In this document: in pieces, positions 14,074-64,000 of the stretch
Position numbering within the stretch: position 1 is the stretch's first letter
How the letters are laid out: every line of letters begins with the position of its first letter
From: an uncultured Oscillospiraceae bacterium
GTDB taxonomy: Bacteria > Bacillota > Clostridia > Acetivibrionales > DTU013
DNA: 64,000 bases
Reading direction: 5' to 3'
Assembly: GCA_964512095.1 (NCBI GenBank)
Contig: CAZEIH010000017.1
Span: 267 to 64,266, forward strand
The notes under the pieces: model-generated
The model's input: only the letters and a program-made list of their open reading frames with translations
The model's database searches: none
Told to the model about the DNA's origin: nothing
Made by a program: the position numbers and the translations under genes

Positions 14074-14135
14074 ATTCATCTATGTCTTCAGAAGGCTCTG
14101 ACCTCTATACAGCCATGCCTATTCGCCTTCACAAT
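14074..14135 (+). repeat. partial (short-variant) copy of the dispersed intergenic repeat
   Basis: ATTCATCTATGTCTTCAGAAGGCTCTGACCTCT matches the 5' part of the copies at 57323 and 59445. The remainder resembles the short copy at 49078. Confidence 0.6.
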
Positions 14136-14161
14136 CCACTAGTTCTGTCTACAGTCAATAA

Positions 14162-21162: not shown

Positions 21163-21267
21163 TTATAAACACCTCTTCATCTACGTATTCATAAGACGCT
21201 GGCCTCACATTCCAGCAAGGCTTACAGCTGGCCTATGCAGCTAGGGCAAAAAACATCTATTTCCTCG

Positions 21268-21612: not shown

Positions 21613-21637
21613 AACAACAACCTTCCTTCCTGTATCT

Positions 21638-21836
21638 CACTGGCCTCTCATTCACTGGCCTCTCATTCACTGGCCCTTGATTTACTGGCCCTTGATTTAC
21701 TGGCCTCTCATTCACTGGCCCTCTAATACACTGGCCTCTCATTCACTGGCCCTTGATTTACTGGCCCTCTAATACACTGGCCTCTCATTCACTGGCCTCT
21801 ATTTCACTGGACCCTGATTGCTAACTGGCCTCATGC
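21638..21836. repeat. tandem array of about 13 units of 15-16 nt (core ACTGGCC)
   Basis: The units are ACTGGCC+TCTCATTC (A), ACTGGCC+CTTGATTT (B) and ACTGGCC+CTCTAATAC (C). The order is A A B B A C A B C A A' and then degenerate units. The array fills the alaS-HIT intergenic gap. Confidence 0.9.
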
Positions 21837-46923: not shown

Positions 46924-47818
46924 TCCTGGTTTTTACTACATCTGTATCTGCATCTGCATCCTTTTTAACTAGTGCATAAACTGTTCTAAGCATAGTCTTG
47001 ATATTACCCATAAATGAAAACCTCTCAATATCACCTAAATTGAACTTCATCTTATCTGGCAACACCAGATTCATATAAACCACATCAACATCAGCAGCAG
47101 CAGTAGCAGTAGCAGTAGCAGCAGCAGTAGCAGTAGCAGTAGCAGTAGCAGTAGTAGTAGCAGTAGCAGCAGCACCAGTAGCATCGCCAGTAGCATCACC
47201 AGTAGCACCAGTAGCACCAGTATCATCAACCTCATAAACCCCATCAAGATTATCAGCTACTTTGAGTATACTTTCCTCATCCTTGTACTCGATACTTGCA
47301 TTTGAGGTAACACCGGCTGGCAGCAGCAGAGTTGCCAGCATTTCATCGGTATACAGCTCTACATATTTGACAACCTCCGGGCGAGTACCTACAAAGCTCA
47401 TATCGCCTTTAATTATATTCAAAAGCTGGGGTATTTCGTCGAGACGATATTTTCTTAAGCTCCTGCCGATTCGGGTAATTCTCACATCGTCACTCCTTGT
47501 GACTTGTGAACCAATTTTCTCAGCATTTTTAACCATTGTTCTAAATTTGAATATAGTAAAATGTCTTCCATATTGGGTTACTCTTGTCTGCTTGAATAGT
47601 ACAGAGCCTTTAGAGTCCAACCTTATGATTATACTTAGTATTAAAAACACCGGCGACAGAAGTATCAGGAAAATAGCAGAGGTGACTATGTCAAATAACC
47701 TCTTAACGAATAAGCTTAGCTTTTTCTTTTCCAATATGTCATAGTACCTTCTGACCTCAGTATTCTTCATGAATTCAGGCAACTTATCCCATTGTCGTAG
47801 CATCACCTTTATCTGCAC
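46904..47818 (-). CDS. PglC/WbaP-C-type monotopic phosphoglycosyl (priming) transferase
   Basis: Bac_transf motifs: a re-entrant helix, FKFRTM and DEIPQLLNIIKGDMSFVGTRP. Carries a ~45-aa (Gly/Asp/Ala/Thr)n insertion. Confidence 0.85.
   Translation of the reverse strand: MQIKVMLRQWDKLPEFMKNTEVRRYYDILEKKKLSLFVKRLFDIVTSAIFLILLSPVFLILSIIIRLDSKGSVLFKQTRVTQYGRHFTIFKFRTMVKNAEKIGSQVTRSDDVRITRIGRSLRKYRLDEIPQLLNIIKGDMSFVGTRPEVVKYVELYTDEMLATLLLPAGVTSNASIEYKDEESILKVADNLDGVYEVDDTGATGATGDATGDATGAAATATTTATATATATAAATATATAAADVDVVYMNLVLPDKMKFNLGDIERFSFMGNIKTMLRTVYALVKKDADADTDVVKTRSVSSEN
47092..47222 (-). repeat. GCT/ACT tri/hexanucleotide coding repeat
   Basis: Minus strand (GCTACT)n, (GCT)n and GGTGMTACT units encode TGATGATGDATGDATGAAATATTTATATATATAAATATATAAA. 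Confidence 0.9.
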
Positions 47819-49077: not shown

Positions 49078-49154
49078 TCAATTCGCTTCGCTTAGGAAAT
49101 AACCATTCATTGCCAATCTATACAGATCAAAATCTTCTGAAGACATAGATAAAA
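49078..49154 (-). repeat. short (internally deleted) copy of the dispersed repeat
   Basis: Both termini are conserved (TCAATTCGCTTCGCTTAGG…TCTTCTGAAGACATAGATAAAA), but the central 12-bp hairpin is missing. Confidence 0.7.
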
Positions 49155-49249: not shown

Positions 49250-49272
49250 CCGGCAGGCCGAAACACTGGCGG
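49250..49272 (-). promoter_or_regulatory. hairpin with conserved 9-nt loop (copy 2)
   Basis: Plus strand reads CCGGCAG-GCCGAAACA-CTGGCGG. The loop is identical to that of 59633-59655 while the stem sequence differs. Confidence 0.45.
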
Positions 49273-49526
49273 AAGTCATCGAAATTTGTATGCATAAGTT
49301 CATCTTGATTGGTTAATTATTGCCTCTTATGTCATTTTAATGATTATGGGGTTATTTGTCAATATGCTATTTGCATAACAATTGGTTCAAAATTATTATG
49401 AAGTTTAGTATTTAAGCAGTGACATAGATAAATTTTTTTATGAATGTGCAATAATAGGTATTCCTTTTGTTGGCAATATGTATTACAATATGTATGTGTA
49501 CAAATTTTGTAAACAGGAGTGGTAAA

Positions 49527-52010
49527 ATGTTTATTTATAAGAAATTATCCTTTATTTTAATTGCTGCATTGATTTTTTCTATATTAATCCCATTTCCTGC
49601 AACAGCAAAAGAGGCTGTAGATGTAACTGAAAAAATTCAGCTTTTAGGGAAGCCTGCTCAATCTCAGCCCTATGCTAGAAATATTTGGGACATGCAGGTC
49701 TTCAAGGGGAAGCTATACGTCTGCTGTGGCAACAGCAGCAATAATGCTCCCGCATCTAACGCAGGGCCAATTGATGTTCTTAGCTATGATTCCGTTAAAG
49801 GCATTAGTAAGGTTTATACAGTCAACGAAGAGCAGGTTGATATCTTCAGAGTCATCAACGAAGTTCTATACATTCCCGGACATGATTCAAAGGATTCCTG
49901 GGATTTTGGCAATTACTACATCTTAAGCGATAGCTGGAAGAAGGTTAGGACAATTCCACAGGGCGTCCATGTCTATGATATGGCTGGCTACAATGGAAAG
50001 CTATACGCTGCTACCGGCACCAATGGCTACAGTGAGGTGGTAGTCTCTAGCGATAACGGCCTTACCTGGAATAAAGCAGCCCCTGAGGATGGAACCATCT
50101 TTCACACCACAGGCTACAGAGCCTATACCATGTTTGAATTTAAAGATGTTTTGTATGCATCCAGCAAGTTTATGGGAGTATCAAGCAATTGCAATAACAT
50201 GCTAAAAATAACCAAAGAAGGTATTACTTCTATTAATGTAGAAGGTCTAAAAATGATGCCGGGGTTGCCATCGTCTACCATGTATGCCAGCTGTAAACTT
50301 ATCAGACCTGTTGAGTTCAAGGATAACTTGTTGTACATAGGCGCTGAGATACACAATGATCATCAATATATACCACTCGCTTTGTATGCTTCCAGCAATA
50401 TTGGAGATGCCAGGATAATAACCCTTCCTGAAAGCACTGCTCTGCCCTATGATATTATTACACGCGATTCCCTTATATACGTTCTCGCCAGTGTTAAAGT
50501 CTCTGACAGCTCTTTTAAAAACTTAGTGTATAAGAGCACTGATTTAAATACCTGGGAGCAGGTGCTTAGCTTTAACAGTAGTGCCTTTGCCCGATCCTTT
50601 GAAGAAATAAATGGTGATTTCTTCTTTGGACTTGGCTGTGACACGGCTTATATGCCTGAATCATCGGGTAATATATTGAAGGTAAGTAAGTCCGCATATG
50701 CACCTACTCAAGTAGTGCAAGCTGTGACCAAGCAGGAGCAGGAGCCTGCGCTTAAAACTCAGTCAGAAGCCAACTCTGGGACGAAGACGGAGGCTAAATC
50801 GGAAACCAAGACTAAATCTGAAACCACATCGGCAGCTAAGTCGGAAACCAAGGCAGAGACCAAATCTGAGACCACATCAGTAGCTAAGTCGGAGGCGAAG
50901 TCCGAGACTAAATCAGAAACCATGGCAGAGACCAAATCAGAAACCAAGGCCGAGACTAAATCTGAGGCCACATCGGTAGCTAAGTCAGAGGCGAAGTCCG
51001 ATACTAAATCAGAAACCATGGCTGAGACCAAATCAGAAACCAAGGCCGAGACTAAATCTGAGGCCACATCTGTTGCTAAGTCAGAGGCGAAGTCCGATAC
51101 TAAATCAGAGACCACATTGGTAGCTAAGTCGGAGGCGAAGTCCGATACTAAATCTATTGAAGAAACCGCGACGATTGGCACCACAGAAAACAATACGCAA
51201 GCTAATAACCCTACCTCATCAAAATCCTCGACTGAGGTCAGTAGAAGCAGCAGGCAGTCATTTGCTAACTCTTCTTCAATAAATGTAAGCAGCAAGCTTA
51301 TGTCAACCGGCATTCAGCTAACTAAGCCCATTACCGCCAATACATCAGAACTCCAGATATTCGGTAGTACCTTGTATCTTTTACAAGAAAACACCTCTGA
51401 GCCAAGTATCATTGGTATAGATCTTGCCAAAGGCGCATTGATTAGTAATGCTGCAGCTGATTCCACCTATAAAAAGAACCAATTAGCGAATAATAAATCT
51501 CATACAACCAAAGAAAATATGGAGTCCTTAAAATTAGCAGTTACGAACATGTTACCTGTTTTGTCGGTCTATAACTCTATAGACATATTCAAAGCTATAA
51601 AAACTGAAGGCTATGAAATATATATTCCAGCTAAGAAAACAATTAGAAAACGGGTCGCCTCCATCGGTTTATACGTTACATCCTTAGGAGGCTCTTCAGG
51701 AGACTCTTCAGGAGGTTCTTCACGCCGCATTAACTTCAACAGCTCTGATGCAAAGCCCTGTGACATAATTATCCGAGATTCCGATGTCTATGTGTTGGCA
51801 GTGGAGGAATACGAAGACAATACCTTCAGAAGCATTGTTTGTCAAAGTAGAGATTTAGTTAACTGGACAGAGCTATTTGTTTTTACCAATGAAGCACCTG
51901 CAGTATCATTTGAGGAACACAATGGTGATTTCTACTTCGTACTTAACTGCGATGAAAAAAATAAATCTGCGTCAAATAAACTAATGAAGGTTAGTAGAAA
52001 TGATTATTAA
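49527..52010 (+). CDS. secreted repeat protein with Asp-box (BNR-like) motifs
   Basis: AGGAG lies 7 nt before ATG 49527. Signal peptide MFIYKKLSFILIAALIFSILIPFPATA. One Asp-box SSDNGLTW, a central (KSETKAE…) repeat block, and a C-terminal ~85 aa that duplicates residues about 330-415. Confidence 0.7.
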   Translation: MFIYKKLSFILIAALIFSILIPFPATAKEAVDVTEKIQLLGKPAQSQPYARNIWDMQVFKGKLYVCCGNSSNNAPASNAGPIDVLSYDSVKGISKVYTVNEEQVDIFRVINEVLYIPGHDSKDSWDFGNYYILSDSWKKVRTIPQGVHVYDMAGYNGKLYAATGTNGYSEVVVSSDNGLTWNKAAPEDGTIFHTTGYRAYTMFEFKDVLYASSKFMGVSSNCNNMLKITKEGITSINVEGLKMMPGLPSSTMYASCKLIRPVEFKDNLLYIGAEIHNDHQYIPLALYASSNIGDARIITLPESTALPYDIITRDSLIYVLASVKVSDSSFKNLVYKSTDLNTWEQVLSFNSSAFARSFEEINGDFFFGLGCDTAYMPESSGNILKVSKSAYAPTQVVQAVTKQEQEPALKTQSEANSGTKTEAKSETKTKSETTSAAKSETKAETKSETTSVAKSEAKSETKSETMAETKSETKAETKSEATSVAKSEAKSDTKSETMAETKSETKAETKSEATSVAKSEAKSDTKSETTLVAKSEAKSDTKSIEETATIGTTENNTQANNPTSSKSSTEVSRSSRQSFANSSSINVSSKLMSTGIQLTKPITANTSELQIFGSTLYLLQENTSEPSIIGIDLAKGALISNAAADSTYKKNQLANNKSHTTKENMESLKLAVTNMLPVLSVYNSIDIFKAIKTEGYEIYIPAKKTIRKRVASIGLYVTSLGGSSGDSSGGSSRRINFNSSDAKPCDIIIRDSDVYVLAVEEYEDNTFRSIVCQSRDLVNWTELFVFTNEAPAVSFEEHNGDFYFVLNCDEKNKSASNKLMKVSRNDY
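50760..51155 (+). repeat. tandem coding repeat, 90-nt period (Lys/Ser/Glu/Thr/Ala-rich)
   Basis: The 30-aa unit SVAKSEAKS(E/D)TKSETMAETKSETKAETKSEAT is repeated nearly identically, with shorter 6-8-aa sub-repeats on both sides. Confidence 0.9.
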
Positions 52011-52465
52011 AATAAACGCCTAAGGCGGTAATACATCCTCATCACCATCTTTCTGACAGGTATAATTAGAAGCCATAATCCTACTAAACATCTTAAAAGC
52101 ATATTATTGCAATCAATAATATGCTTTCCCCTTCTTATCCTGGAAACAGTAGCAATCAACTGGTGAGATACAAGAGGCCCTTCTACCCACTGCTGCGCGT
52201 CACCTATTATATAAAAGCTACTCTCTTCCTTTTTCATTACTCTGTGCATTACATATTCGCCTGTCAATCGTTTAATTAGAACGATATCTCCCCTTTTCAC
52301 AGAATCGTAGGAATTGCTTGCAAGCTCTACACTGTCCTTACCTTCACGTAGAAATGGATACATACTCATCCCGGTTACCGTTATCCAGGCCTTTTCACCA
52401 TTATTCAGTATCTCAGCGACCAAACTAAACAGTTCTGCCGCCTTCACCTTTACAAGCTCATGCAT
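52007..52465 (-). CDS. S24/S26-type serine peptidase-like protein, C-terminal TM
   Basis: TGMSMYPFL (GxSMxP Ser box), GDIVLIKR (Lys box) and the hydrophobic tail LLRCLVGLWLLIIPV. Overlaps the upstream gene by 16 nt. Confidence 0.65.
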   Translation of the reverse strand: MHELVKVKAAELFSLVAEILNNGEKAWITVTGMSMYPFLREGKDSVELASNSYDSVKRGDIVLIKRLTGEYVMHRVMKKEESSFYIIGDAQQWVEGPLVSHQLIATVSRIRRGKHIIDCNNMLLRCLVGLWLLIIPVRKMVMRMYYRLRRLF

Positions 52466-53346
52466 TTATACACCAACTCCACAGCTTCATAGTCAGGGCG
52501 GCATTGTAGCAGATAAACGGGAACTGTTTCTACCAGCTTTTCAATGACCTTAATAGTTGCCTCCATTAATCCTCCATCAAAGTATGGGAGAAAGCACCGA
52601 GGCATCAACATTTCCAGCGCTCTGGCCATATCGAGTCTTTCAATCCTATTCTCAGATGACCGGGTCAGCATCACAACACCCTCCAATGGTACCTTCAAAT
52701 TAGCAAATATATCTGTTGAACCACTCCAGGGCGTACCACACAGCATCGGCTTGCCCTCAAGGAAACGAATAACCGGTCTATCGTCATTCAAAAGTGTAAC
52801 TCTGTCTCCGTACCTTTCCTTCCACAGCCCTGTATGTGTTGACTTGCCTGTACCTGAAGGAGCAGATACAATAACACCCTTACCGTCTATTGCAAATGAG
52901 GAGGAATGTACAGTAATGCTATCCATACTAATCATTGCGTTTCTGTATGCTATACCTGTGAGCTGAAATGTGTGGTAATCATTCCATTTGACACGTCTAT
53001 TATCACTTATGGGATAAGTCAAATCAGACTCTATGTATCTAATGGATATATTCCTCCAAAAATAATCTGCTTCAAGAATGGTGTCAAACTCCAGATTTCT
53101 TGTACTTGTCATAGCTATGAAAAAACCGTTGTCAGGAGCTTTTTTTCTATACCATCTTGATGTTTCATCAAGTATCAGATCACCATCAGGAATAACAATG
53201 TTATCCACCTTTTCCGATTTAACAATCAAATCGACAGCTGAAGCCGACGTATCCGATGCTTCCATTTTGAATATGGCTCCTCTTTCTTCAAACAGATCGT
53301 TGGATCCTATAAATTCGACAATAATACCAGCAATGTTGTAAAGCAA
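52450..53346 (-). CDS. HPr-kinase-C-terminal-domain-like P-loop protein
   Basis: VHSSSFAIDGKGVIVSAPSGTGKSTHTGLW resembles the HprK C-domain motif (H-A-S…G…G-x-S-G-x-GKS). TTG start at 53346, 9 nt after AGGAG. Confidence 0.65.
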   Translation of the reverse strand: MLYNIAGIIVEFIGSNDLFEERGAIFKMEASDTSASAVDLIVKSEKVDNIVIPDGDLILDETSRWYRKKAPDNGFFIAMTSTRNLEFDTILEADYFWRNISIRYIESDLTYPISDNRRVKWNDYHTFQLTGIAYRNAMISMDSITVHSSSFAIDGKGVIVSAPSGTGKSTHTGLWKERYGDRVTLLNDDRPVIRFLEGKPMLCGTPWSGSTDIFANLKVPLEGVVMLTRSSENRIERLDMARALEMLMPRCFLPYFDGGLMEATIKVIEKLVETVPVYLLQCRPDYEAVELVYKCMSL

Positions 53347-53427
53347 ATTTATTCACTCCTGACAATTACATAATATAATAGCTTAGAGAAATTCCCTTAT
53401 GCAGGCTGAGCCTTCCTTTTGGTTCAG

Positions 53428-53524
53428 TCAATTCGCATCGCTCAGGGAGTCAGGTGGAGACTGAACTCCGCTTGACCAAGGAAGTTAATTATTGAGTTCA
53501 GCGTCTCCTGAAGACATAGATAAA
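53428..53524 (-). repeat. full-length copy of the dispersed repeat (inverted relative to 57323 and 59445)
   Basis: TCAATTCGCATCGCTCAGGGAGTCAGGTGGAGACTGAACTCCGCTTGACC…CCTGAAGACATAGATAAA. About 85% identical to the reverse complement of 57323-57425. Confidence 0.85.
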
Positions 53525-53528
53525 GGGC

Positions 53529-53560
53529 AAAATAAAAGGGATTGTACAATTAACAACCCC
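53529..53560 (-). terminator. rho-independent terminator directly after the second precursor gene
   Basis: Minus RNA reads GGGGUUGU-UAAUUGU-ACAAUCCC-UUUUAUUUU. The G·U pair would be an A·C mismatch on the plus strand, so the orientation is minus. Confidence 0.7.
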
Positions 53561-53581
53561 CCATTAAAGACATACATAATA

Positions 53582-53710
53582 TTAGGAATTCAAACCTACC
53601 CAGGTATTATACTCTGCAGAGCAAGCCCCATCATAGTATGTACATGTACAAACTCTCTCATCTGCGCGTAGTTCTACACAGTTTATTTCGGGAGCAACAT
53701 ATTTTTTCAT
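53582..53710 (-). CDS. putative RiPP precursor peptide A2 (42 aa)
   Basis: Not in the ORF track. AGAGGTG lies 7 nt before the ATG. Sequence: MKKYVAPEINCVELRADERVCTCTYYDGACSAEYNTWVGLNS. Confidence 0.75.
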   Translation of the reverse strand: MKKYVAPEINCVELRADERVCTCTYYDGACSAEYNTWVGLNS

Positions 53711-53746
53711 TGTTTTTCACCTCTTTCCTCTTCAAGTTTGTATTTC

Positions 53747-53893
53747 TCACGAATCGCTAAGGGCTATAAGACCAACCATTGTGGGAATGTTTTGAACCTC
53801 CCATGTAGTACAACTTCCTGTGCAATTGCTGGCTATACGCTCCTCAACTCTTAGCTCTACACATGATAGTGTAGGTGTAACATATGCTTTCAT
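53747..53893 (-). CDS. putative RiPP precursor peptide A1 (48 aa)
   Basis: Not in the ORF track. AGGAGGG lies 7 nt before the ATG, 30 nt after the rSAM stop. Sequence: MKAYVTPTLSCVELRVEERIASNCTGSCTTWEVQNIPTMVGLIALSDS. Confidence 0.75.
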   Translation of the reverse strand: MKAYVTPTLSCVELRVEERIASNCTGSCTTWEVQNIPTMVGLIALSDS

Positions 53894-53923
53894 CTGGAAC
53901 CCTCCTTTCCATAATTTTTAAAA

Positions 53924-55051
53924 TCAATATTCTACATCCAGCTCCTTGCGGGCTTTTGCAGTCTCGCAAAGATATGGGGCTGGTTTAGTGAAGCTGCCTG
54001 TTTCAACCTTCAGTCTTGCAGGACAAGCCATGCATTTTGAGCGAAGGTCGCAATTATCACATTCCTTGCAGGAAGGTACATCCAGGCAGGATTTCTTTAG
54101 CAGTTCCCAAGATTTCGAAAATCCAAGACTCTTTACGTCGAACCAGGGATCTGTCAATAAGCCGCAAGGCGTCAATCTGCCATCCCAGGTCAACCAAAAG
54201 GCACCCTTCCCCGCCGTACATCTAAAGGCGGACGAAGCAGTCATATGCGGTATCTCTCCCACTAACTCATTAAGCTGGCCATCTGTCATAACATCATTAT
54301 TTACTGATAGCTCAGCCCTCTTCCTTGTTTCTTCCCGGTCCATGAGCTTTAATCTGAAGTCCTGAATCATTTTCTCATACCTTGCCAGCTCCAGAGGACC
54401 AAGCCTGCAGTTTTCAGGATCAGTGCCACAGCCCTCTCTCCTTGGCGCAACATAGTTGACTATGCCCAGTTGCCCTCCAAGACTGTCTGCTAAAGAATAT
54501 ATCTCCTCAAATTCACTACTATTTTCATCTATAACAGTGGTCTTTAGCTCTACCTTAATATTCTCAGCTAATAGCAGCTTTATTGCATTTACCGTATTGT
54601 GGAAGCCCTCCGGGTGTCCTGTGACTCTACCATAGGTCTCTGGACTTGCCCCATAAAGTGTAATGCTCACCTTTGATGGTGGCCTCTTCCCCAATCTGTG
54701 TGCCTTTTCAGCGTCTATGAGACCTCCGTTAGTATAGAGGGTAATACTCATTCCCATTTCTGAAAGAGCCTCGTATATCTCAAAGAAGTCCTTTCTCATG
54801 AATATCTCTCCACCGGTTAATGTCATAAAAATGAGCCCTGCATCTCTGGCCTGCCTTCCCAATGAAATCCACTGTGATGCTGTCAGCTCGTTTTCAAGGA
54901 ATGCTTTATCATCTGGCACACTGCATACGTAGCACATTTTGCAATGAAAGCTACATCTGGCTGTCAATTCAAAAAAACCTGATGCAGGATTCCCTACAAT
55001 AATTGACCTGTCAATTAAATTTTTGTATAATTGAGCCCATGACATACTCAT
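53924..55051 (-). CDS. radical SAM / SPASM-domain peptide-modifying enzyme
   Basis: CSFHCKMC (CxxxCxxC) near the N-terminus. The Cys-rich C-terminus is FRCTAGKGAF…TPCGLL…CLDVPSCKECDNCDLRSKCMACPA…YLCE. Overlaps the PqqD-like gene by 4 nt. Confidence 0.85.
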   Translation of the reverse strand: MSMSWAQLYKNLIDRSIIVGNPASGFFELTARCSFHCKMCYVCSVPDDKAFLENELTASQWISLGRQARDAGLIFMTLTGGEIFMRKDFFEIYEALSEMGMSITLYTNGGLIDAEKAHRLGKRPPSKVSITLYGASPETYGRVTGHPEGFHNTVNAIKLLLAENIKVELKTTVIDENSSEFEEIYSLADSLGGQLGIVNYVAPRREGCGTDPENCRLGPLELARYEKMIQDFRLKLMDREETRKRAELSVNNDVMTDGQLNELVGEIPHMTASSAFRCTAGKGAFWLTWDGRLTPCGLLTDPWFDVKSLGFSKSWELLKKSCLDVPSCKECDNCDLRSKCMACPARLKVETGSFTKPAPYLCETAKARKELDVEY

Positions 55052-55335
55052 TGTTGGTCCCCGCCATCTGCTGTTTCCAGTAGATTTTTCTGATGCAGTG
55101 TATCTAAAAACCTGATAACATCATTTTTTGCAGTTGCCTCGTCGATATCATATTCTTCAAGCAAAGCTGATACTAATTGCTGAGTGTTGGCATCACTTTC
55201 CATCAGGCGCCATAAAATCGCACCACTTTCACTTAGCGTCATTATTCCGTTGAATTCTACAACTCTTGCCCCCAATGGAACAACTACCCATTGCTTGGCA
55301 ATCTCCCGTAACATGAAACCGCTTTTGACCTTCAT
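55048..55335 (-). CDS. PqqD-family protein (RiPP recognition element)
   Basis: 95 aa. FMLREIAKQWVVVPLG…FNGIMTLSESGAILWRLM…LVSALLEEYDID…AKNDVIRFLDTL matches the PqqD-like winged-helix pattern. Confidence 0.8.
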   Translation of the reverse strand: MKVKSGFMLREIAKQWVVVPLGARVVEFNGIMTLSESGAILWRLMESDANTQQLVSALLEEYDIDEATAKNDVIRFLDTLHQKNLLETADGGDQQ

Positions 55336-55432
55336 CTACAAACCCCTTTATGATATGTTGTAATTTTATCTATTTAGTAGCCTTTTTATGTAATATTATA
55401 CAGTATCATCTTTTAAATGAATTTTCATGTCT

Positions 55433-55461
55433 ATATTATAATTATTTCATCTGTAAGTCAA
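55433..55461 (-). promoter_or_regulatory. candidate promoter for the pqqD-rSAM-precursor unit
   Basis: Minus strand reads TTGACT, a 17-nt spacer, then TAATAT (a TATAAT also occurs at 15 nt). It lies in a 222-nt AT-rich gap. Confidence 0.4.
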
Positions 55462-55557
55462 TACCAATTTTAATATTTCCAGTAATACTTTTGCTTTTAT
55501 TTTATTTTTTTACTTTTTATGTGGCATAGTCGCTTTTTTCATGGCACAATTACTTTA

Positions 55558-57255
55558 TTAGACAGTCAGTAATTTTCTATTCTCCCTTTCCGGTTCTAAA
55601 AACCCCTCCCTAAGTCTGAATACTTTACTACAGCTATTTAGGGCAGTCATTCTGTGAGTAATCATTATACAGGTTCGAGCATGGCCTATTCCCTGTATAC
55701 TTTGTAATACCTTCTCTTCCAGCTCTATATCAAGGGCTGAGGTAGCCTCGTCAAGTATTATAATCGGCGCCTTCCTAAGATAGGCCCTGGCTATTGCTAT
55801 TCTCTGGGCCTGGCCTTCAGAAAGCCCGTATGCTTTTTCTCCAATAACAGTGTTAATTCCATCTGGAAGCTTTTCGACAAATTCCAGCGCACAGGCTGCT
55901 TTTAATGCTTCCTTCATTTCACTCTCACTTGCCTCCTGCTCTCCTGTGCGCAGATTGTCAGCTATTGTTCCACTTAATAATGTATTTCCTTGAGGAACAT
56001 ACGAGAACCAGCTTCTTGTGGCACATGTAATTTCACTTTTTTCGTCCCTTTCATTGAAACAGTAGATACTTCCAGCATCAGGCTTTAAAAGAGCAAGCAT
56101 GAGGCGTATTATCGTTGTTTTACCTTCGCCGGAGCTTCCTATTATGGCTACTATTTCACCTGGCAACGCCTCCATTGAAATATTATTCAGTACAATTTCA
56201 TCATCTTCATAGCTAAAGCTGACATTTTCAAATTTAATCCCTACCGAGCCAGGAGTCTCCAGTAGCTCATCAGTTACCTCTGTATTCAGCCTCTCAAGCT
56301 CTATCAACCTGCCTGCAGATGCCAGTGCTGCAATAATCTGAGGCAGCATCCTTGAAAGACCCATAAAGGGAGCCTGAACCTGATTGACAAGCTGCAGGAA
56401 GGCGGTCATTGTACCGTAAGTCGCTGTCCCCCTGGCTACCTTCACTATACCCCAGCCAAAGGCTGACCCATAGCCAAGCCAGTATCCAATAGACATTATG
56501 GTGCTAGCCATTACTCCGGCTTTGCTTCGCTTTGTCACCAGCTCTAGCTTTTCCTTTTGCAGCTCTCCAATTTTCTTCTTGCTATTTTCTTCAAGATTAA
56601 AGGTCTTAATAACCAGAAGGTTCTGCAGGTATTCCTGCATTTGAGACCGGTAAGTACTTTCGGTTTCCTGTATCTGTATGTGCATTTTGCCAAGTCTTCT
56701 GCCATAAAATCTGCTCACAAGTATCGTAAATGGCGCAAGTACAAATGCAAGTATCGCTAAGCTCTTGTCATAAACCATAAGTGTCACAAATGCCGCCGTT
56801 AGCTGTACTCCTAAGGAAATGATCTGTGGCAGTACGCTAATTGAACCGTTTGTAACAGAATTAATGTCGCTTGTCAAACGGGTCAGAAGATCACCACTGT
56901 GATATCTTGAGACCTGGGCCCACTCAATGTTTATCAGCTTTGCAAAAATACCCTGCCGCATATCATTGGAGTACCTTTCATGAACTCTTGCTGTATACAC
57001 TGTAAGAAATGCACGGGAAATTTGCATAAATAAAATCACACTCACAAATAAAGCGATGTTAGGTCCAGCACTTTTTAATCCATCATAAATAGCACTGTCT
57101 ACGAGATTTTTTGACGCTACCGCCATTAAAACTGAGGCAATAGCAGCCAAAGATTCCACAGCTATTATGAGAATAAGGGCTCCCAGGTATGGCCTTATGC
57201 TTGCAGCTAACCATCTGATATTGGATAAACTCTTTATTACTTTCTTAATGTTCAT
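55558..57255 (-). CDS. ABC exporter, fused permease/ATPase (no C39 peptidase domain)
   Basis: 565 aa with 6 TM helices, Walker A GSSGEGKTT, signature LSEGQAQR and Walker B IIILDEATS. Confidence 0.9.
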   Translation of the reverse strand: MNIKKVIKSLSNIRWLAASIRPYLGALILIIAVESLAAIASVLMAVASKNLVDSAIYDGLKSAGPNIALFVSVILFMQISRAFLTVYTARVHERYSNDMRQGIFAKLINIEWAQVSRYHSGDLLTRLTSDINSVTNGSISVLPQIISLGVQLTAAFVTLMVYDKSLAILAFVLAPFTILVSRFYGRRLGKMHIQIQETESTYRSQMQEYLQNLLVIKTFNLEENSKKKIGELQKEKLELVTKRSKAGVMASTIMSIGYWLGYGSAFGWGIVKVARGTATYGTMTAFLQLVNQVQAPFMGLSRMLPQIIAALASAGRLIELERLNTEVTDELLETPGSVGIKFENVSFSYEDDEIVLNNISMEALPGEIVAIIGSSGEGKTTIIRLMLALLKPDAGSIYCFNERDEKSEITCATRSWFSYVPQGNTLLSGTIADNLRTGEQEASESEMKEALKAACALEFVEKLPDGINTVIGEKAYGLSEGQAQRIAIARAYLRKAPIIILDEATSALDIELEEKVLQSIQGIGHARTCIMITHRMTALNSCSKVFRLREGFLEPERENRKLLTV

Positions 57256-57322: not shown

Positions 57323-57425
57323 ATTTTATCTATGTCTTCAGAAGACGTTGACCTCTGAATTAATTAACTTCCTTGGTCAGATGGAGTTCAGTCTCCACCT
57401 GACTCCCTGAGCGAAGTGAATTGAT
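57323..57425 (+). repeat. full-length copy of the dispersed ~103-nt repeat
   Basis: 97/103 identical to 59445-59547. Contains the GTCTTCAGAAGAC palindrome, TTAATTAA and the hairpin GGTCAGATGGAG-TTCAGT-CTCCACCTGAC. Confidence 0.9.
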
Positions 57426-59360
57426 ATGCCTTCTTGTTTTTATGAAACCTTTGTTCTCTTGTATTGCTTTGTATGATCTAGTTGCCTGTTCGCTTTCATA
57501 TAAATCCATATCCTGTATCTCAGGTATAAAATAATCCTTCGTGTATCTGTATGTCGGTACAAGCTTAGCCATGGTTTCTCTGAGCATTTCATCGTTCTCC
57601 ATGGAATTTTCCAACGCCTTAATACACATGATAACTTCTTGGAAGCTTATATCATGCTGTTTGCCGATAAATATCTTTTCATGGGCAGTTTTCTCCAGTC
57701 CCTCCTCTGCCATCAGTAGCTCCTCGTAGAGCTTCTCTCCAGGCCGCAAGCCTGAGTATTCTATCTTTATATCCACATACGGTTCAAAGCCTGACAGGCT
57801 AATAAGATCCCGGGCTAAATCTGCAATTTTAACAGGCTCGCCCATGTCAAGCACAAATACCTCACCGCCCTCCCCCAGCGCTCCTGCCTGAATCACCAGC
57901 TGAGCAGCCTCAGGTATGGTCATGAAGTAACGTATAATATCAGGGTGAGTGACTGTGACAGGGCCCCCCTGAATAATTTGCTTCTTGAATAGCGGTATGA
58001 CACTACCATTACTACCTAGAACATTACCAAAGCGGACAGCTGCGAATTTGGTTTCACTCATTCTATTCATGGATTGGACAATAATCTCAGCCAGACGCTT
58101 TGATGCGCCCATTATATTAGTAGGGTTTACTGCCTTGTCGGTAGACACAAGTATGAATTTCTTTGTTCCAAAGTCTATCGCCCGCCTACAGGTATTTAGC
58201 GTACCGAATACATTGTTCTTTATAGCTTCCGAAGGATTTCCCTCCATCAATGGCACATGCTTGTGGGCTGCCGCATGGAATACAACTCCCGGCCTATAGC
58301 GCTCAAATATCTCCCTGAGCCTTCCACGGTCCCTACAGGAGCCTATGAGGACTTCCAAGTCAAGCTTATCCTTGTACGTATAGACCAGCTCATTTTGTAA
58401 ATCGTAAGCGTTGTTTTCGTAAATATCAAATATAACCAGCTTTTTTGGCTCAAATTTAGCAATCTGCCTGCAAAGCTCTGAGCCTATGGATCCCCCACCG
58501 CCTGTCACTAACACTACTTCATCCTTGAGGTATCCGGATATTTCGTCCATATTGAGAGTAATCTCGTCACGTCCCAAAAGATCTTCTATATCTACATCCC
58601 TAAGCTGATTGGCTGTCAATTCCCCATCAATTATATCCATCATGTTGGGAAGTGTTTTTAGCTTGCATTTGGTATCCTTGCTTATCCTTAACAAATCAGC
58701 AACATCCCGCTTTGAAGCCGATGGTATGGCAACTACTATCTCATCTATTTTGTACTGCTTTGCTATCTCCCTGATTCTCTCTCTTCCTGATACCACCGGA
58801 ATATTATTAATACAGGTACCATGCTTTGTTATATCATCATCTACCACTACAACTGGTACCAGGTTCATATCGTTATGGTTTTTGAACTCCTTTATTAACA
58901 TAGAGCCTGCACTTCCAGCACCAACCATCATAACCCTGCTGGGCTTACGGTTGTTCCTTTGCAAATAAAGCCTTGCTCTGCGAAGATATCTGCATCCAAT
59001 CCTAACAGAACCAATAAGCATACATAAAAATATCCATGAAATTATGTGTATGGATATTGGGTATGTCCTTCCTGTCAACTGGCTTATTAGTAATCCAAGC
59101 CCTGTAGCTGTGATGGTTCCAACTGTAATCTGCATCATTTCCTCTATGCTTGCATATTCCCAAAGGCTTCTATAGAGTCCGAAAAAATAGAATACAACAA
59201 TTTGAACAATGCTAATCATCAGTGCATTTCTTAAGAAGTTATCAAAGTATTTCTGCGGTATGGCTATATCAAATTTTATGAGCAATGCAAGGCATAGTGA
59301 AATATTTACTATTAAAGCATCTGCTATGACAAGTACAATTTTTCTTAATTTAACTGACAT
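57360..59360 (-). CDS. PglF/CapD-type membrane-anchored UDP-sugar 4,6-dehydratase
   Basis: Four N-terminal TM helices, VLVTGGGGSIGSEL and FGNVLGSNGSVIP (Polysacc_synt_2). ATG 59360 follows GGGAGG. The last 22 codons lie inside the repeat. Confidence 0.85.
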   Translation of the reverse strand: MSVKLRKIVLVIADALIVNISLCLALLIKFDIAIPQKYFDNFLRNALMISIVQIVVFYFFGLYRSLWEYASIEEMMQITVGTITATGLGLLISQLTGRTYPISIHIISWIFLCMLIGSVRIGCRYLRRARLYLQRNNRKPSRVMMVGAGSAGSMLIKEFKNHNDMNLVPVVVVDDDITKHGTCINNIPVVSGRERIREIAKQYKIDEIVVAIPSASKRDVADLLRISKDTKCKLKTLPNMMDIIDGELTANQLRDVDIEDLLGRDEITLNMDEISGYLKDEVVLVTGGGGSIGSELCRQIAKFEPKKLVIFDIYENNAYDLQNELVYTYKDKLDLEVLIGSCRDRGRLREIFERYRPGVVFHAAAHKHVPLMEGNPSEAIKNNVFGTLNTCRRAIDFGTKKFILVSTDKAVNPTNIMGASKRLAEIIVQSMNRMSETKFAAVRFGNVLGSNGSVIPLFKKQIIQGGPVTVTHPDIIRYFMTIPEAAQLVIQAGALGEGGEVFVLDMGEPVKIADLARDLISLSGFEPYVDIKIEYSGLRPGEKLYEELLMAEEGLEKTAHEKIFIGKQHDISFQEVIMCIKALENSMENDEMLRETMAKLVPTYRYTKDYFIPEIQDMDLYESEQATRSYKAIQENKGFIKTRRHINSLRSGSQVETELHLTKEVN

Positions 59361-59444
59361 CTCATTTTCCTCCCGTGTTTTGCGCAGCAATCTCTACACT
59401 GGCCTATTCATGTACGTATAACACTAATTTATATATTCAAAATC

Positions 59445-59547
59445 ATTTTATCTATGTCTTCAGAAGACGCCGACCTCTGAATTAATTAACTTCCTTGGTC
59501 AGGTGGAGTTCAGTCTCCACCTGACCTCCTGAGCGAAGCGAATTGAT
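59445..59547 (+). repeat. full-length copy of the dispersed ~103-nt repeat
   Basis: Contains a perfect 12-bp hairpin GGTCAGGTGGAG-TTCAGT-CTCCACCTGACC. It sits in the loaP-to-capD leader. Confidence 0.9.
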
Positions 59548-59632
59548 TTAGTCCAAAAAAGGCATGGTTTTACCAATTGTATATATATTGCTCCTATACA
59601 ATGGCATCACTAGCCTTTGACCTCCTACTCTC

Positions 59633-59655
59633 ATACCGGGCCGAAACACCGATAT
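59633..59655 (-). promoter_or_regulatory. hairpin with conserved 9-nt loop (copy 1) in the polysaccharide-operon leader
   Basis: Plus strand reads ATACCGG-GCCGAAACA-CCGATAT and can be extended to 11 bp. On minus-strand RNA the stem is fully paired with one G·U. Confidence 0.45.
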
Positions 59656-59732
59656 GGGACTTGGATTTTGTTTAAAGCCTTTACAACGATAGCCCCGGGT
59701 TATCGATAGATGTGAGTAATTCATCAGTCCTT

Positions 59733-60257
59733 CTATATTGGTTTCAGGATAGAAATCCCTAGATCTACTGTCCTTTCTTCTCCAAGGAAATCCAGCCGTA
59801 TCTTAGCTCTTTCTTTGCGATGGTCTATACTAATAATTACCCCTTCAAGGGAAAAGAGAGGACCGTCTACCACTTGAACTCTCCCATTCTCTATCAGCAC
59901 ATTCGAAAAACCAATTTCTTCGTTATTAGAAATCAAGCTGGACAATACAGCCATTTCTCGGCGGTCTATACTTGCCACTGAATTTCCTGTCTTTAGTAAT
60001 CTAATTACATTTGGTATGTTCTTTAAACCATAATACGTATCTGGAGTTATATCACCATTAATTAAAACATAGCCGGGAAACAAGACCCTTGTTTCTACCC
60101 TCCATATGCCGCCCTTCCTGACCCGCAGCTTTCTTTTGGGTACCACTACGGTATAGTCATCACCCAATCTATACCTGACTCTCTCCTTTGCCCTCTCCTC
60201 TTCACCTGTAACAACAAACACACCATGCCATTCATCTAATCGTGAATCATACAACAT
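59733..60257 (-). CDS. loaP: NusG-paralogue transcription antiterminator (LoaP-like)
   Basis: 174 aa. NGN-like N-terminus (WHGVFVVTGEEERAKERV…LFPGYVLI) and a KOW-like C-terminus (VQVVDGPLFSLEGVIISIDHRKERAKIRL). It is the first gene of a polysaccharide locus. Confidence 0.7.
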   Translation of the reverse strand: MLYDSRLDEWHGVFVVTGEEERAKERVRYRLGDDYTVVVPKRKLRVRKGGIWRVETRVLFPGYVLINGDITPDTYYGLKNIPNVIRLLKTGNSVASIDRREMAVLSSLISNNEEIGFSNVLIENGRVQVVDGPLFSLEGVIISIDHRKERAKIRLDFLGEERTVDLGISILKPI

Positions 60258-60410: not shown

Positions 60411-60645
60411 GGGAGACGGTTCGGTTCGGGGACGGTTCTCACCTTTGGAGACGGTTCCCACCTTTGGGGACAGTTCGTTCGGGGCCAGTTCGTTCGGGGC
60501 CAGTTCGTTCGGGGACAGTTCTCACCTTTGGGACAGTTCGGTTCGGGGACGGTTCTCACCTTTGGGACGGTTCGGCTCGGGGACGGTTCGTTCGGGGACA
60601 GTTCTCACCTTTGGGGACAGTTCGTTCGGGGACGATTCTCACTTT
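60411..60645. repeat. tandem array of 14 units of two types (15 nt and 19 nt)
   Basis: 8 units are GGGGAC(A/G)GTTCGTTC-like and 6 are GGGGAC(A/G)GTTCTCACCTTT-like, and the two types are interleaved. The last unit overlaps the stop codon of the AI-2E transporter gene. Confidence 0.9.
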
Positions 60646-61691
60646 GCGATTGCCTCAACTGTTTTATTAATCAACACCCTGATTATAGCCATTACAGGTA
60701 CGGCTAGGAGCATACCTGTGATTCCAAAAAACTCTCCGCCCACAAGGACTGCAAATATTGTGGCAACAGGATGAAGTCCCATCCGTCCTTCTATCATTTT
60801 GGGTGAAATAAAACTGTTATCGATTTGCTGCACAGTAAGAAAAACCACGATGGTCCAAACCGCCTTCATTGGCGATATTGTTAGGGCAACAGCAACAGCA
60901 GGTATTGCTCCAATGTATGGACCAAAGTAAGGAATCACATTGGCCAATCCACCGAGCATACCAAGAACTAGAGGATATCGCATACCAACTATAATAAGTC
61001 CGATAGTTTCCAGTATACCTATAATAAATGAAATAACCAGCTGCCCCTGAATAAATCCGGCAAGAATCCTGTTAATCTCCTTGAATACAAAAGTTAGGCC
61101 ATTCCTCCAGTGTCTTGGGAACAACAGTAAAGTATACTCTTTAAACCTTTCCCCATCTTTTATAGTGTAATATGTAATAACTAGCGCAATAGTTATGTCT
61201 ACAATGATTTTCACCATATCAACAACAAGGTTTAGACCATCCTCCAGCAGTCTAACAAGAAATGACTGCAACTTGTCCATAACATTTGTTATCTGATCAA
61301 ATATAGCATCTTTAACCTGCTCTGACCAGTTAGTAGAATCGATAGTAGAGAGTAGACCATTTAATGTGTTTTCATAGCTTAACATAAGCTGTGGTAACGT
61401 TTCCATCAGTTCTCGGATGTTTGTAGCCAGTTCAGGAATCAGGTATATACCCACAGCCACCAACAGCGCCAATATAAACAAGTAAACAACCAATATAGAT
61501 ATACCCACCGGTATCCTTTTGGCAATCAGCCTGTCTGACAAAGGCTTTACTATGTATACCAGCATTACCGTGACAAAAAACGGTGATAGGACTCTTACTA
61601 TTTTACCCCAATATGTATATATGAAAAAAACTGATGCTGTTATCATCAAAATCAAGATAAGGTAGAATAATAGCTTCTTATATCGTGCCAC
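60639..61691 (-). CDS. AI-2E family transporter (PerM/UPF0118)
   Basis: 350 aa with about 8 TM helices and GGLANVIPYFGPYIGAIPA. GTG start lies 6 nt after AGGAGG. Confidence 0.8.
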   Translation of the reverse strand: MARYKKLLFYLILILMITASVFFIYTYWGKIVRVLSPFFVTVMLVYIVKPLSDRLIAKRIPVGISILVVYLFILALLVAVGIYLIPELATNIRELMETLPQLMLSYENTLNGLLSTIDSTNWSEQVKDAIFDQITNVMDKLQSFLVRLLEDGLNLVVDMVKIIVDITIALVITYYTIKDGERFKEYTLLLFPRHWRNGLTFVFKEINRILAGFIQGQLVISFIIGILETIGLIIVGMRYPLVLGMLGGLANVIPYFGPYIGAIPAVAVALTISPMKAVWTIVVFLTVQQIDNSFISPKMIEGRMGLHPVATIFAVLVGGEFFGITGMLLAVPVMAIIRVLINKTVEAIAK

Positions 61692-63040: not shown

Positions 63041-64000
63041 ATGAAAAATATATTTAAGAGGCTTGGAGTACACATTCCGGAGATTCTACTGCCTGTGGAT
63101 GGCACAGATTTAACCAAATGGGCAGTCATAGCCTGCGATCAATACACCTCACAGCCGGAATACTGGGATAAGGTAAGTGAAGGGGTTGGCCAAAACCCTT
63201 CTACGCTTAAACTGACCTTTCCTGAGATTTATCTGAAGGATGACGATAAGGACAAAAGAATTGAAAGTATTAATAAGACTATGGAGGAATATCTTATCCA
63301 GGGCACTCTTGAACCGCAGGATCCGGGGTTCATTCTTGTAGACCGCAGTACACCCCATACATCCTCAAGGAAGGGGCTAATTATTGCACTTGATCTGGAA
63401 TGCTACGACTACAGACCCGGTGCTCAAACCCTCATACGGGCAACTGAAGGGACGGTTCTTGACCGTATACCGCCAAGAGTAAGAATTCGTGAAAATGCAC
63501 CAATTGAGCTGCCTCATATTATGGTACTGATTGATGACCCAGATAAAACAGTAATAGAAGGCCTTTATGCTAAAGCTGAAGCTGGAGGCTTTAAGAAGCT
63601 ATATGATTTTGAATTAATGCAAGGCGGTGGCCATATAAAGGGATGGAAGGTCGATGACAAAGAAAGCCTGTCAATGGTAGCCAAGGCCTTCAACAAACTA
63701 GAGCGCGGTGGCTGCCCCTGCGGTAGCGATACCATTGGGGACGATACCATTGGGGACAGTTCTCACCTGCCCTGTAACCTTCTCTTTGCAGTTGGCGATG
63801 GAAATCATTCTCTTGCTTCCGCAAAGGCCCACTGGGAAAATGTCAAGGCTAGCCTTATTAAAGATACTAATGAACCAATTCCAGAACATCCTGCAAGATA
63901 CGCTTTGGTAGAGCTAGTAAATGTACACGATGATGGCTTGGTTTTTGAACCAATTCATAGAGTTCTTTTTAATATAAATGCAACAACAATCCTCGAAATG
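63041..64000 (+). CDS. DUF1015-family protein (3'-truncated by the window end)
   Basis: GGGAGG lies 10 nt before ATG 63041, and the frame is open to the window end (320 codons). Missing from the track because it has no stop. Motifs CDQYTSQPEYW and AVGDGNHSLASAKAHWE are typical of DUF1015. Confidence 0.8.
   Translation, partial: MKNIFKRLGVHIPEILLPVDGTDLTKWAVIACDQYTSQPEYWDKVSEGVGQNPSTLKLTFPEIYLKDDDKDKRIESINKTMEEYLIQGTLEPQDPGFILVDRSTPHTSSRKGLIIALDLECYDYRPGAQTLIRATEGTVLDRIPPRVRIRENAPIELPHIMVLIDDPDKTVIEGLYAKAEAGGFKKLYDFELMQGGGHIKGWKVDDKESLSMVAKAFNKLERGGCPCGSDTIGDDTIGDSSHLPCNLLFAVGDGNHSLASAKAHWENVKASLIKDTNEPIPEHPARYALVELVNVHDDGLVFEPIHRVLFNINATTILEM
63727..63768 (+). repeat. 15-nt tandem units of the GGGGAC family inside the DUF1015 CDS
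   Basis: CGATACCATTGGGGA occurs twice and is followed by CAGTTCTCACCT. The last part is identical to the long unit of the 60411-60645 array. Confidence 0.8.

Follow-up and report, generated by a model that had tools for sequence, protein, structure and literature searches.

A dispersed 125-nt repeat with two long hairpins in an uncultured Acetivibrio-like lineage of Clostridia

A 64,000-nt stretch of DNA (the window) from an uncultured anaerobic-digester Clostridium relative (Acetivibrio-like) was analyzed and carries several copies of a previously undescribed repeat family, whose canonical element measures 125 nt and contains two long hairpins (HP1 and HP2). With a probability of roughly three in four, this family consists of non-autonomous, dispersed DNA repeats of REP/MITE type that are selfish or neutral and proliferate within one lineage of uncultured Acetivibrio-like Clostridia. 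A few master copies probably act as the source of new copies, and an enzyme supplied in trans would recognize the hairpins, of which HP1 is the best conserved part of the element. Once inserted, copies would not be maintained by selection; they decay rapidly via internal deletions. A sequence-only reading of the window had described an intergenic dispersed family that lacks terminal inverted repeats (TIRs), target-site duplications (TSDs), and a linked transposase, and this description holds on 45 independent copies.

All five window copies listed in that reading were recovered in place and score far above chance, although the copy at 14074 is present only as a 3′ module. The copies at 57323-57425 and 59445-59547 (both minus strand; profile E values of 7e-27 and 6e-28, respectively) are direct repeats that are 94% identical across 103 nt. 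The inverted copy at 53426-53524 (plus strand; profile E value of 2e-24), originally delimited as 53428-53524, shows 87 to 92% identity across 64 to 75 nt. In addition, the motifs GTCTTCAGAAGAC and TTAATTAA and the 12-bp hairpin GGTCAGGTGGAG-N6-CTCCACCTGACC were all found in the window. When at most two mismatches are allowed, the palindrome has 14 matches compared to 0.92 expected, and none of 100 shuffles reaches 14.

The window copies that had been called full are actually internally deleted relative to the canonical element and lack approximately 23 nt (CGTCTTCATTCATCGCCGACCTAT), which correspond to the 5′ arm of the second long hairpin. The 59445 copy (profile positions 3 to 125), a deleted form of approximately 102 nt, comprises the 5′ module, an intact 12-bp HP1, TTAATTAA, and a 3′ module with GTCTTC-T-GAAGAC. 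It has its deletion junction (AATTC/AGAGGTC) in common with the 57323 copy, in which the stem of HP1 includes one G·U pair and, at the base, an A/C mismatch. The internal deletion of the 53426-53524 copy is a different one; its HP1 contains two G·U pairs, and the copy lies antisense to the surrounding minus-strand RiPP-like operon.

The degenerate copy at 49078-49154 (plus strand; 3′ module with a profile E value of 4e-5) does lack the hairpin, as had been noted, while both end modules are retained. Its 5′ module (approximately 49078-49100) and 3′ module (49104-49152) flank a hairpin region that is lost or replaced, and the copy sits in the divergent spacer between a DegT-like gene and an 847-aa open reading frame (ORF). 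The short variant proposed at 14074-14135 survives in part: 14075-14111 (minus strand; profile positions 89 to 124; E value of 1e-5) is a significantly similar remnant consisting of the 3′ module only (AGAGGTCAGAGCCTTCTGAAGACATAGATGAA), whereas the remaining interval shows no significant similarity. This remnant is located approximately 20 nt upstream of the start of an MBL-fold hydrolase gene. Comparison with the allelic contig L042, the flanks of which are 97.8% identical, identifies a 7-nt stump (AGTCAAT; 14153-14159, plus strand) as the remains of the 5′ end of another copy, inserted in the opposite direction. At this site L042 has 31 nt of the 5′ module (L042 positions 3879-3911, profile positions 1 to 33), and a 28-nt deletion distinguishes the two alleles. 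The case for a sixth copy, at 21176-21207, is weak, since the sequence is 78% identical to a 32-mer and was missed by the profile.

In the window, the copies sit as passengers between the genes of a polysaccharide/RiPP locus headed by a NusG paralog (174 aa). The 59445 copy begins 7 nt past the U-run of the leader terminator 3′ of the NusG-paralog gene and ends approximately 85 nt ahead of the CapD-like start. The CapD-like ORF, in turn, extends 21 codons into the 57323 copy and stops within TTAATTAA; its own stop codon is lost, and the copy supplies both the last 21 codons and the stop. This tail is the only visible effect of the window copies. For annotation, it illustrates that such repeats can lengthen ORFs artificially; the repeats also break short-read assemblies and, when situated in a polysaccharide locus of LoaP type, could pass for regulatory RNAs.

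The canonical element has sharp, constant ends (AGTCAATTCG…ATAGATAAA), and the flanks of its copies are unique. Nineteen copies are exactly 125 nt long, and the others form a spectrum of internal deletions. In the master form, 4 nt are followed by HP1, 5 nt, HP2, and a 9-nt tail (ATAGATAAA), with the foot of HP1 approximately 20 to 23 nt from the 5′ end and the end of HP2 9 nt from the 3′ end. HP1 is a composite of outer segments (AATT/GCTTC/CT), an inner 11- to 12-bp stem (GTCAGGTGGAG), and an ACTGAA loop, while HP2 consists of an outer stem (GTCTTCA), an inner stem (GCCGACCT), and the loop ATAG. The two share no sequence similarity, HP1 being a single palindrome. Variation in HP1 affects approximately 1% of positions, compared to 5 to 8% elsewhere in the element, and its 6-nt loop (ACUGAA in RNA) is nearly invariant, with two changes in 38 copies. 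Both strands, as DNA or RNA, fold into the same two long hairpins (z of approximately -7 to -8).

The element is non-coding, with stops in several frames (TTAATTAA), and no transposase lies inside it. A consensus scan of the copies revealed neither a σ70-type promoter nor an intrinsic terminator; an internal promoter or terminator was rejected, as the scan shows only an outward-facing TTGACT at the 5′ end that is able to pair with flank sequence. Intrinsic terminators in the flanks were also considered and set aside as too weak a signal, since a crude scan predicted them in 8 of 73 downstream flanks versus a background of 4.7%.

The sequence-only reading had named confinement of the element to this locus as a refutation. 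The element is instead widespread, being present on no fewer than 55 additional contigs from the metagenome of the window as well as in three to four metagenome-assembled genomes (MAGs). A 22-nt probe from the 3′ end matched 58 contigs, 55 of which belong to this metagenome (LSQX01). Matches in a scan of genome contigs were mostly chance matches in coding sequence (Bacillus and Clostridium), leaving the MAGs L003, L012, L015, and possibly L016 as holders of family members; the version in L012 is diverged. Across approximately 530 kb (the window and fetched contigs), the profile search yielded 92 matches, approximately 85 of which represent the family; as many as 5 copies occur within 10.5 kb. 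A search of viral contigs, PLSDB, and INPHARED gave no match to the family, and a phage, plasmid, or viral origin was rejected.

The ends of the element and their flanks were compared across the 45 independent copies. The 5′ end (AGTCAATTCGCTTC) does not meaningfully resemble the reverse-complemented 3′ end (TTTATCTATGTCTTC): as judged by eye on the 45-copy consensus, at best approximately 5 of 10 positions agree. The two flanks of a copy match over at most 2 nt, which is seen in one of the 45 copies; 15 copies have a longest match of 1 nt and 29 have none, and flank positions -12 to -1 show no consensus. The first 4 to 6 nt of the element (AGTCAA) are invariant, and this AGTC(AA) start could be a retained insertion target. 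Like the classical MITEs (Correia/NEMIS, RUP, ERIC, and Chunjie), the repeat is small (approximately 100 to 200 nt), intergenic, and non-coding, reaches tens to hundreds of copies, has strong secondary structure, and lacks an internal transposase. It also shares with them internal-deletion size variants and occasional in-frame read-through into adjoining ORFs (reviewed in PMC10969869). However, it is without both of their defining features, the TIRs and the flanking direct repeats. It differs as well from integron attC/VCR cassette repeats, which form a one-orientation array at a single locus and have RYYYAAC…GTTRRRY ends, in that its ends are AGTCAA…GATAAA and it is found on more than 55 contigs, beside housekeeping genes and in both orientations.

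Among modes of mobilization, the absence of TIRs and TSDs and the subterminal hairpins speak most for "peel and paste" as a single strand by an HUH/Y1-type enzyme (IS200/IS605- or RAYT-like), although this specific route is less likely than not. The ends of IS200/IS605 elements and PATEs likewise have no TIRs or TSDs, and the repeat resembles them in its subterminal hairpins near both ends. Its hairpin spacing is comparable to the layout of IS608, in which guide tetranucleotides are positioned 5′ of each hairpin foot (PMC5934647). In contrast to these elements, the left and right hairpins of the repeat are dissimilar, no conserved tetra- or pentanucleotide target is present outside it, and neither TnpA nor TnpB was found near its copies. 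Their replication-strand bias appears weak or absent, with 21 copies in the same orientation as the GC-skew-inferred leading strand and 37 in the opposite one (p≈0.05, with copies that are not independent); relative to the majority coding strand, the split is 23 versus 25. The unlike hairpins, the lack of a conserved outside target, and both orientation counts would argue against the HUH sub-mechanism.

The window and all fetched loci, 635 kb in total, yielded no transposase of any kind; the genome is incomplete. For Y1/HUH enzymes, phmmer searches with approximate queries for IS200 TnpA, IS608 TnpA, and the Escherichia coli RAYT, which make a weak test, returned nothing at E≤10 among the six-frame ORFs of up to 635 kb. 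An autonomous partner was rejected on two grounds: no pair of 5′- and 3′-end fragments brackets an ORF in the right orientation, and no recurrent protein family was found beside the copies. The ORFs next to end-only fragments encode TM2, SSB, CorA, PEMT, YetF, and similar proteins.

REP/BIME and REPIN elements are mobilized by RAYT, an HUH/Y1 transposase. The repeat is like them in being short, high copy, and extragenic, with a stable palindrome, in either orientation and often near gene 3′ ends, and in having no TIRs, no target duplication, and no linked transposase. The family could accordingly be read as a REPIN/REP-like population that is vertically inherited and copied by a single-copy, domesticated host RAYT-type tyrosine transposase, and not as a decaying IS offshoot. 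Such a population would be consistent with the conservation of the palindromic core HP1 above the element background, the narrow range of lineages in which the family occurs (the MAG L012 carries a diverged version), and the lack of an IS-like autonomous partner. Nevertheless, we consider it unlikely. In a REPIN, one REP is present twice in inverted orientation, whereas the repeat joins two unrelated hairpins in a constant unit of 125 nt, the single-stranded ends of which are unique. RAYT genes normally have their REPs on both sides; no RAYT-like ORF was found in the 635 kb, a weak test with an approximate query, and a conserved GTAG-type tetranucleotide at the hairpin foot was not noticed in an informal look. 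Moreover, RAYT/REPIN systems are known mainly from Proteobacteria, a group to which this Clostridium-related host does not belong.

A living hairpin-replicator population in Clostridia, with constant-ended 125-nt units copied by a host single-strand enzyme (HUH/Y1 or other) without TIRs or TSDs, would be a fairly unlikely reading. If true, it would amount to a REPIN/RAYT-like system outside the Proteobacteria or to a new mode of mobilization, and HP1, given its strong conservation, might also have been recruited as a 3′-UTR RNA element. For mobile-DNA biology, a constant-ended, high-copy repeat that lacks both TIRs and TSDs and resides in a relative of Clostridium provides a handle on its mobilizing enzyme once a closed genome exists. 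Beyond this use and that for annotation, the family would, under the preferred reading as a non-autonomous dispersed repeat, be an ordinary selfish repeat.

With respect to genes, the copies are without exception intergenic and often lie no more than some tens of nucleotides from gene 3′ ends. None is spanned by a genuine flanking gene, and the three spanning ORFs that were called are element-derived read-through. Sixteen copies are co-directional sense, 13 co-directional antisense, 9 divergent, and 5 convergent. The neighbors are ordinary housekeeping genes, including SSB, CorA, and relA. This arrangement bears on the proposal that GTCTTC-N-GAAGAC, a near-perfect 6+6 palindrome, is a DNA operator bound by a transcription factor and that the repeats mark its regulon. 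The 3′ module is the most widely retained part of the element: it occurs by itself at 14075 and, as a weak match, at 21176, and the copy in L003 places it directly 5′ of a ribosome binding site and start codon. However, the excess of 3′-only copies arises because the 3′-end probe itself selected them, and unbiased secondary copies include 5′-only and 3′-only fragments alike. Conservation spans 125 nt with sharp ends, far beyond the needs of an operator. The next start codon lies anywhere from 3 to more than 450 nt away, 18 copies precede an opposite-strand gene (5 of these between convergent genes), and the neighboring genes have no common functional theme. An operator function is, in our view, highly improbable.

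The stem substitutions in the window copies had earlier been read as hinting that selection acts on an RNA structure when the element is read TCAATTCG→ATAAAA. The element could then be a cis-acting structured RNA, used for example as a signal for recruitment of, or antitermination by, the NusG paralog (LoaP-like), the gene of which lies immediately upstream, or as a selected 3′-UTR stabilizer hairpin. In keeping with this, the 59445 copy follows the NusG-paralog gene (Pfam NusG, 3e-12) directly and is oriented in sense, the 57323 copy belongs to the same operon, and all three stem substitutions in the window copies are G·U in sense. HP1 is also the most conserved segment of the element, the fold is very stable, and many sense copies start 0 to 60 nt past the upstream stop codon. 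The hint nonetheless fails on the larger copy set. Among 38 hairpin-bearing copies, 15 stem substitutions give G·U in sense, 11 give G·U in antisense, and 12 are mismatched in both. A compensatory stem change was seen once among these copies, in an internally deleted one, and none of 37 pairs is changed on both sides in the 24 near-full copies. In the latter set, pair 10-60 is paired in the sense strand only (G·U in 13, G-C in 7, and A-U in 2), which is offset by pair 87-102, a C·A in sense in 13 of the 24.

The covariance check on the same 24 copies gave a score of 0.066, which is below the shuffle mean of 0.068 and is reached by 335 of 500 shuffles. Because this covariation is not significant, the RNA idea fails on the test that the sequence-only reading had set for it. 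Furthermore, the orientation of the copies relative to genes is random, one allele of the 53428 copy has its hairpin half deleted, and the whole window has no Rfam match at the gathering threshold, with noise only at E≤5-10. A structured RNA is thus very unlikely. Nothing shows the repeat to be a regulatory RNA, although the stronger conservation of HP1 could also mean a host-level function.

As for LoaP, one repeat copy resembles its leader hairpin in that it contains a stable hairpin and occupies the leader region immediately 3′ of a NusG-paralog gene with which a polysaccharide locus begins. The published LoaP target, however, is a small hairpin with a UNCG tetraloop (PMC12691694), in contrast to the 6-nt ACUGAA loop of HP1, and the repeat is dispersed genome-wide beside unrelated genes in both orientations. 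A LoaP/NusG-paralog recruitment signal was rejected on the basis of this wrong loop type, the absence of the repeat from orthologous loci, and the presence of a UUCG hairpin proper to the locus. This separate, conserved UUCG hairpin with its terminator is located at 59639-59649, has a second copy at 49256-49266, and is also found in the repeat-free relatives L085-L087. It fits a LoaP signal much better than the repeat does and is the better candidate for the leader signal of the LoaP-type locus.

In the nearest relatives (L085, L086, and L087), the orthologous NusG-paralog/CapD loci are without the repeat, which appears as an extra block of the window in the alignment; in L086 and L087, the CapD→ABC spacer is only 21 nt long and repeat-free. 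No repeat was detected in a total of approximately 60 kb from syntenic loci of relatives (83% amino-acid identity), even at E≤10. Near-identical strains, by contrast, all share the insertions of the window, and the next relatives are too diverged for empty sites (their CapD is 83% identical at the amino-acid level, and their MBL hydrolase ≤64%). As neither group yielded a pair of filled and empty sites, we infer transposition from the copy pattern.

The L077 allele of the 53428 copy has identical flanks and a different internal deletion, with part of the HP1 3′ arm gone. Short forms do not cluster, their identity to each other (90.8%) being comparable to their identity to long forms (91.6%); on this and the differing deletions of alleles, a propagating short-form subfamily was rejected. 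SINE-like 5′ truncation was also rejected, as secondary copies are truncated at either end. The 49078 copy is unchanged in seven of eight independent assemblies (L077-L083), and the eighth, L084, stops inside the copy. The Logan contig L076 both starts and ends within copies of the repeat.

Direct reading of the sequence and repeat detection bore out the positions that the sequence-only reading had assigned to a dispersed ~100-nt repeat in five copies. Those at 57323-57425 and 59445-59547 are direct repeats with 94% identity, and a third, at 53428-53524, is inverted (87-92% identity over 64-75 nt). The copy at 49078-49154 keeps both end modules and has lost the hairpin; that at 14075-14111 keeps the 3' module alone. 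The GTCTTC-N-GAAGAC palindrome of this module occurs 14 times in the window with at most two mismatches, against 0.92 expected. The repeat had no match in Rfam, whether gathering thresholds or permissive E-values were applied.

Extraction and alignment of the copies gave a canonical unit of 125 nt, AGTCAATTCGCTTCGCTCAGGGAGTCAGGTGGAGACTGAACTCCACCTGACCAAGGAAGTTAATTAATTCGTCTTCATTCATCGCCGACCTATAGAGGTCAGCGTCTTCTGAAGACATAGATAAA. Exactly this length is found in 19 copies; the remaining copies are internal-deletion forms, several of the deletions lying between short direct repeats (AATTCG…AATTCG, GTCTTC…GTCTTC). The 'full' copies of the window themselves lack ~23 nt, corresponding to the 5' arm of the second long hairpin. 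The same two composite hairpins are predicted on either strand, whether it is folded as single-stranded DNA or RNA (z-scores from -7 to -8): HP1 at element positions 5-65, with an inner stem of 11-12 bp and an ACTGAA loop, and HP2 at positions 71-116. The fold leaves 4 nt at the head and 9 nt at the tail single-stranded. The boundaries are sharp, with no consensus at flank positions, and no target duplication was found (0-1 nt common to both flanks in 44 of 45 copies). The element ends are not inverted repeats. HP1 is the best conserved part (~1% variable versus 5-8% elsewhere), which we attribute to a need in copying, not to host function.

Scanning one genome per GTDB species with a degenerate 21-nt probe for the 3' module gave 15 matches, mostly coincidences in coding sequence. 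Three or four are true relatives, located in an uncultured Acetivibrio MAG (L003), a Bacillota MAG (L012), a Clostridiales digester MAG (L015) and, possibly, a fourth MAG (L016). A 22-nt version of the probe matched 58 metagenome contigs, 55 of which derive from a single assembly, LSQX01, also the source of the window according to exact protein matches. Viral contigs, plasmids and phages showed no match to the element. A profile built on canonical copies returned 92 matches in the window and the fetched loci, ~85 of them family copies, with up to five within 10.5 kb. The ~21 copies not used for retrieval suggest roughly one repeat per 13-19 kb, a density that would amount to some 150-300 repeats per genome.

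The short forms do not cluster, as identity is 90.8% between short copies, 91.6% between short and long copies and 92.5% between long copies. In an allelic contig (L077), the 53428 copy has identical flanks and a different internal deletion, which partly removes the HP1 3' arm. The differing deletions indicate that a fuller copy once occupied this site and that the strain lineages each lost different parts of it by deletion. At ~14.15 kb, an inverted copy is reduced to a 7-nt stump in the window, and another allelic contig (L042, 97.8% identical) still has 31 nt of it. Repeat decay outpaces flank divergence, which speaks against selection acting on copies once inserted.

The stem substitutions of the window copies had been read as a weak hint of selection on an RNA structure in one orientation. 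All three are indeed G·U pairs in the 'sense' direction, but this pattern does not hold across 38 copies: 15 substitutions are G·U in sense and mismatched in antisense, 11 show the reverse, 12 are mismatched on both strands and a single one is compensatory, in a copy bearing a deletion. Among 24 near-full copies, two-sided changes affect none of 37 pairs, and covariation does not exceed that of shuffles (score reached by 335 of 500). Hints from single pairs conflict, pair 10-60 favouring the sense strand and pair 87-102 (C·A in 13 of 24 copies) the antisense strand. An RNA interpretation of the repeat is not supported.

A related candidate was a LoaP-type antitermination signal, a serious one since a NusG-family gene (ORF 59733-60257, minus strand, 174 aa) heads a polysaccharide/RiPP-like locus. 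This locus encodes CapD-like, ABC transporter, PqqD, radical-SAM, two small Cys-rich, ScmC-like, DegT and sugar transferase products. The target described for LoaP is a hairpin with a UNCG tetraloop (PMC12691694). We rejected the candidate on hairpin type, absence in relatives and the presence of a separate conserved leader hairpin. The syntenic loci of the closest relatives (L085-L087, CapD 83% identical) hold zero repeat copies at E≤10, and their CapD→ABC spacer is just 21 nt. Alignment of the NusG→CapD spacer revealed a conserved block other than the repeat: a hairpin whose apex, GUGUUUCGGCC with a UUCG loop, is invariant and whose lower stem covaries in L085-L087, and then a large hairpin with a U-run, together terminator-like. 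In the window, this leader spans 59555-59660 on the minus strand (apex motif 59639-59649), and the repeat forms an additional insertion 7 nt past its U-run. The UUCG hairpin occurs once more, upstream of the DegT-like gene (49256-49266, minus strand). The conserved UUCG leader fits the published LoaP design of UNCG hairpin and leader terminator.

No genuine flanking gene spans any copy of the repeat; the three spanning ORFs called are short read-throughs that the element itself encodes. Counted against crude gene calls, flanking genes are co-directional with the element in sense (16 copies) or antisense (13), divergent (9) or convergent (5). Relative to the majority coding strand of each locus, 23 copies are on the same and 25 on the opposite strand; relative to the leading strand inferred by GC skew, the split is 21 versus 37 (p≈0.05, copies non-independent). 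Ordinary genes adjoin the repeats (relA, SSB, CorA, transporters and similar), and no recurring protein family was found beside them. No Y1/HUH transposase was detected in a weak test by sequence search, and no candidate transposase was found bracketed by a 5'-end/3'-end fragment pair.

In its behaviour, the element resembles small dispersed repeats of the REP/MITE type. The TIR and TSD that define a MITE are both absent, and, unlike a REPIN, it does not consist of one REP in two inverted copies. IS200/IS605 ends have no TIR/TSD and carry subterminal hairpins (PMC5934647), as does the element, but it differs from them in having no similar left and right hairpins, no external target and no clear strand bias. 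We therefore class it as a new family within an already known type of repeat. It is an undescribed but otherwise ordinary selfish repeat, and mobilisation by an HUH/Y1 route is our leading guess, albeit a doubtful one.

The CapD-like ORF exceeds its 83%-identical homologues, which end in …AIAQN and a stop, by 23-30 aa. The ancestral TAA stop (homologues, e.g., L086) reads AAA in the window, and read-through (57360-57455, minus strand) adds 9 codons from the spacer and 21 from the 57323 copy before a stop in TTAATTAA. Inside the polysaccharide locus, a RiPP-like cassette occupies 52450-57255 on the minus strand, comprising an ABC transporter (55558-57255), PqqD (55048-55335), a radical-SAM gene (53924-55051), a pair of small Cys-rich ORFs (~53770-53890 and 53580-53710; 48 and 42 aa as called in L076/L077) and an ORF of 298 aa that weakly matches ScmC (52450-53346). 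The relative L086 carries this cassette in duplicate; there, the reverse transcriptase/maturase of a group II intron (RVT_1 + GIIM, 178-1575), unrelated to the repeat, adjoins the syntenic locus.

Contig L076 of an independent short-read assembly (Logan SRR8925752) starts and ends inside two repeat copies (window 53440 and 57379), indicating that the family fragments assemblies; it is probably under-represented in MAGs. Other repeats were also observed. Upstream of the NusG-paralog gene, a spacer of 380 nt contains a dense tandem array of 15/19/34-nt units (60413-60653; GGGGACAGTTCGTTC and variants), which could be regulator-binding sites; a single related unit lies at 63737-63768. Between alaS-like and HIT-family genes, a 15-nt unit (TCACTGGCCTCTCAT) is repeated ~11.5 times in tandem (21637-21819), and a similar short array lies in the 3' flank of a repeat copy on contig L056. 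Three coding repeats have a 12-nt period: 9778-9998, a Pro/Gly-rich run in a 1401-aa ORF (8727-12932); 47069-47239, at the C-terminus of the sugar transferase; and 50758-51162, in an 847-aa ORF (49467-52010) with no Pfam match.
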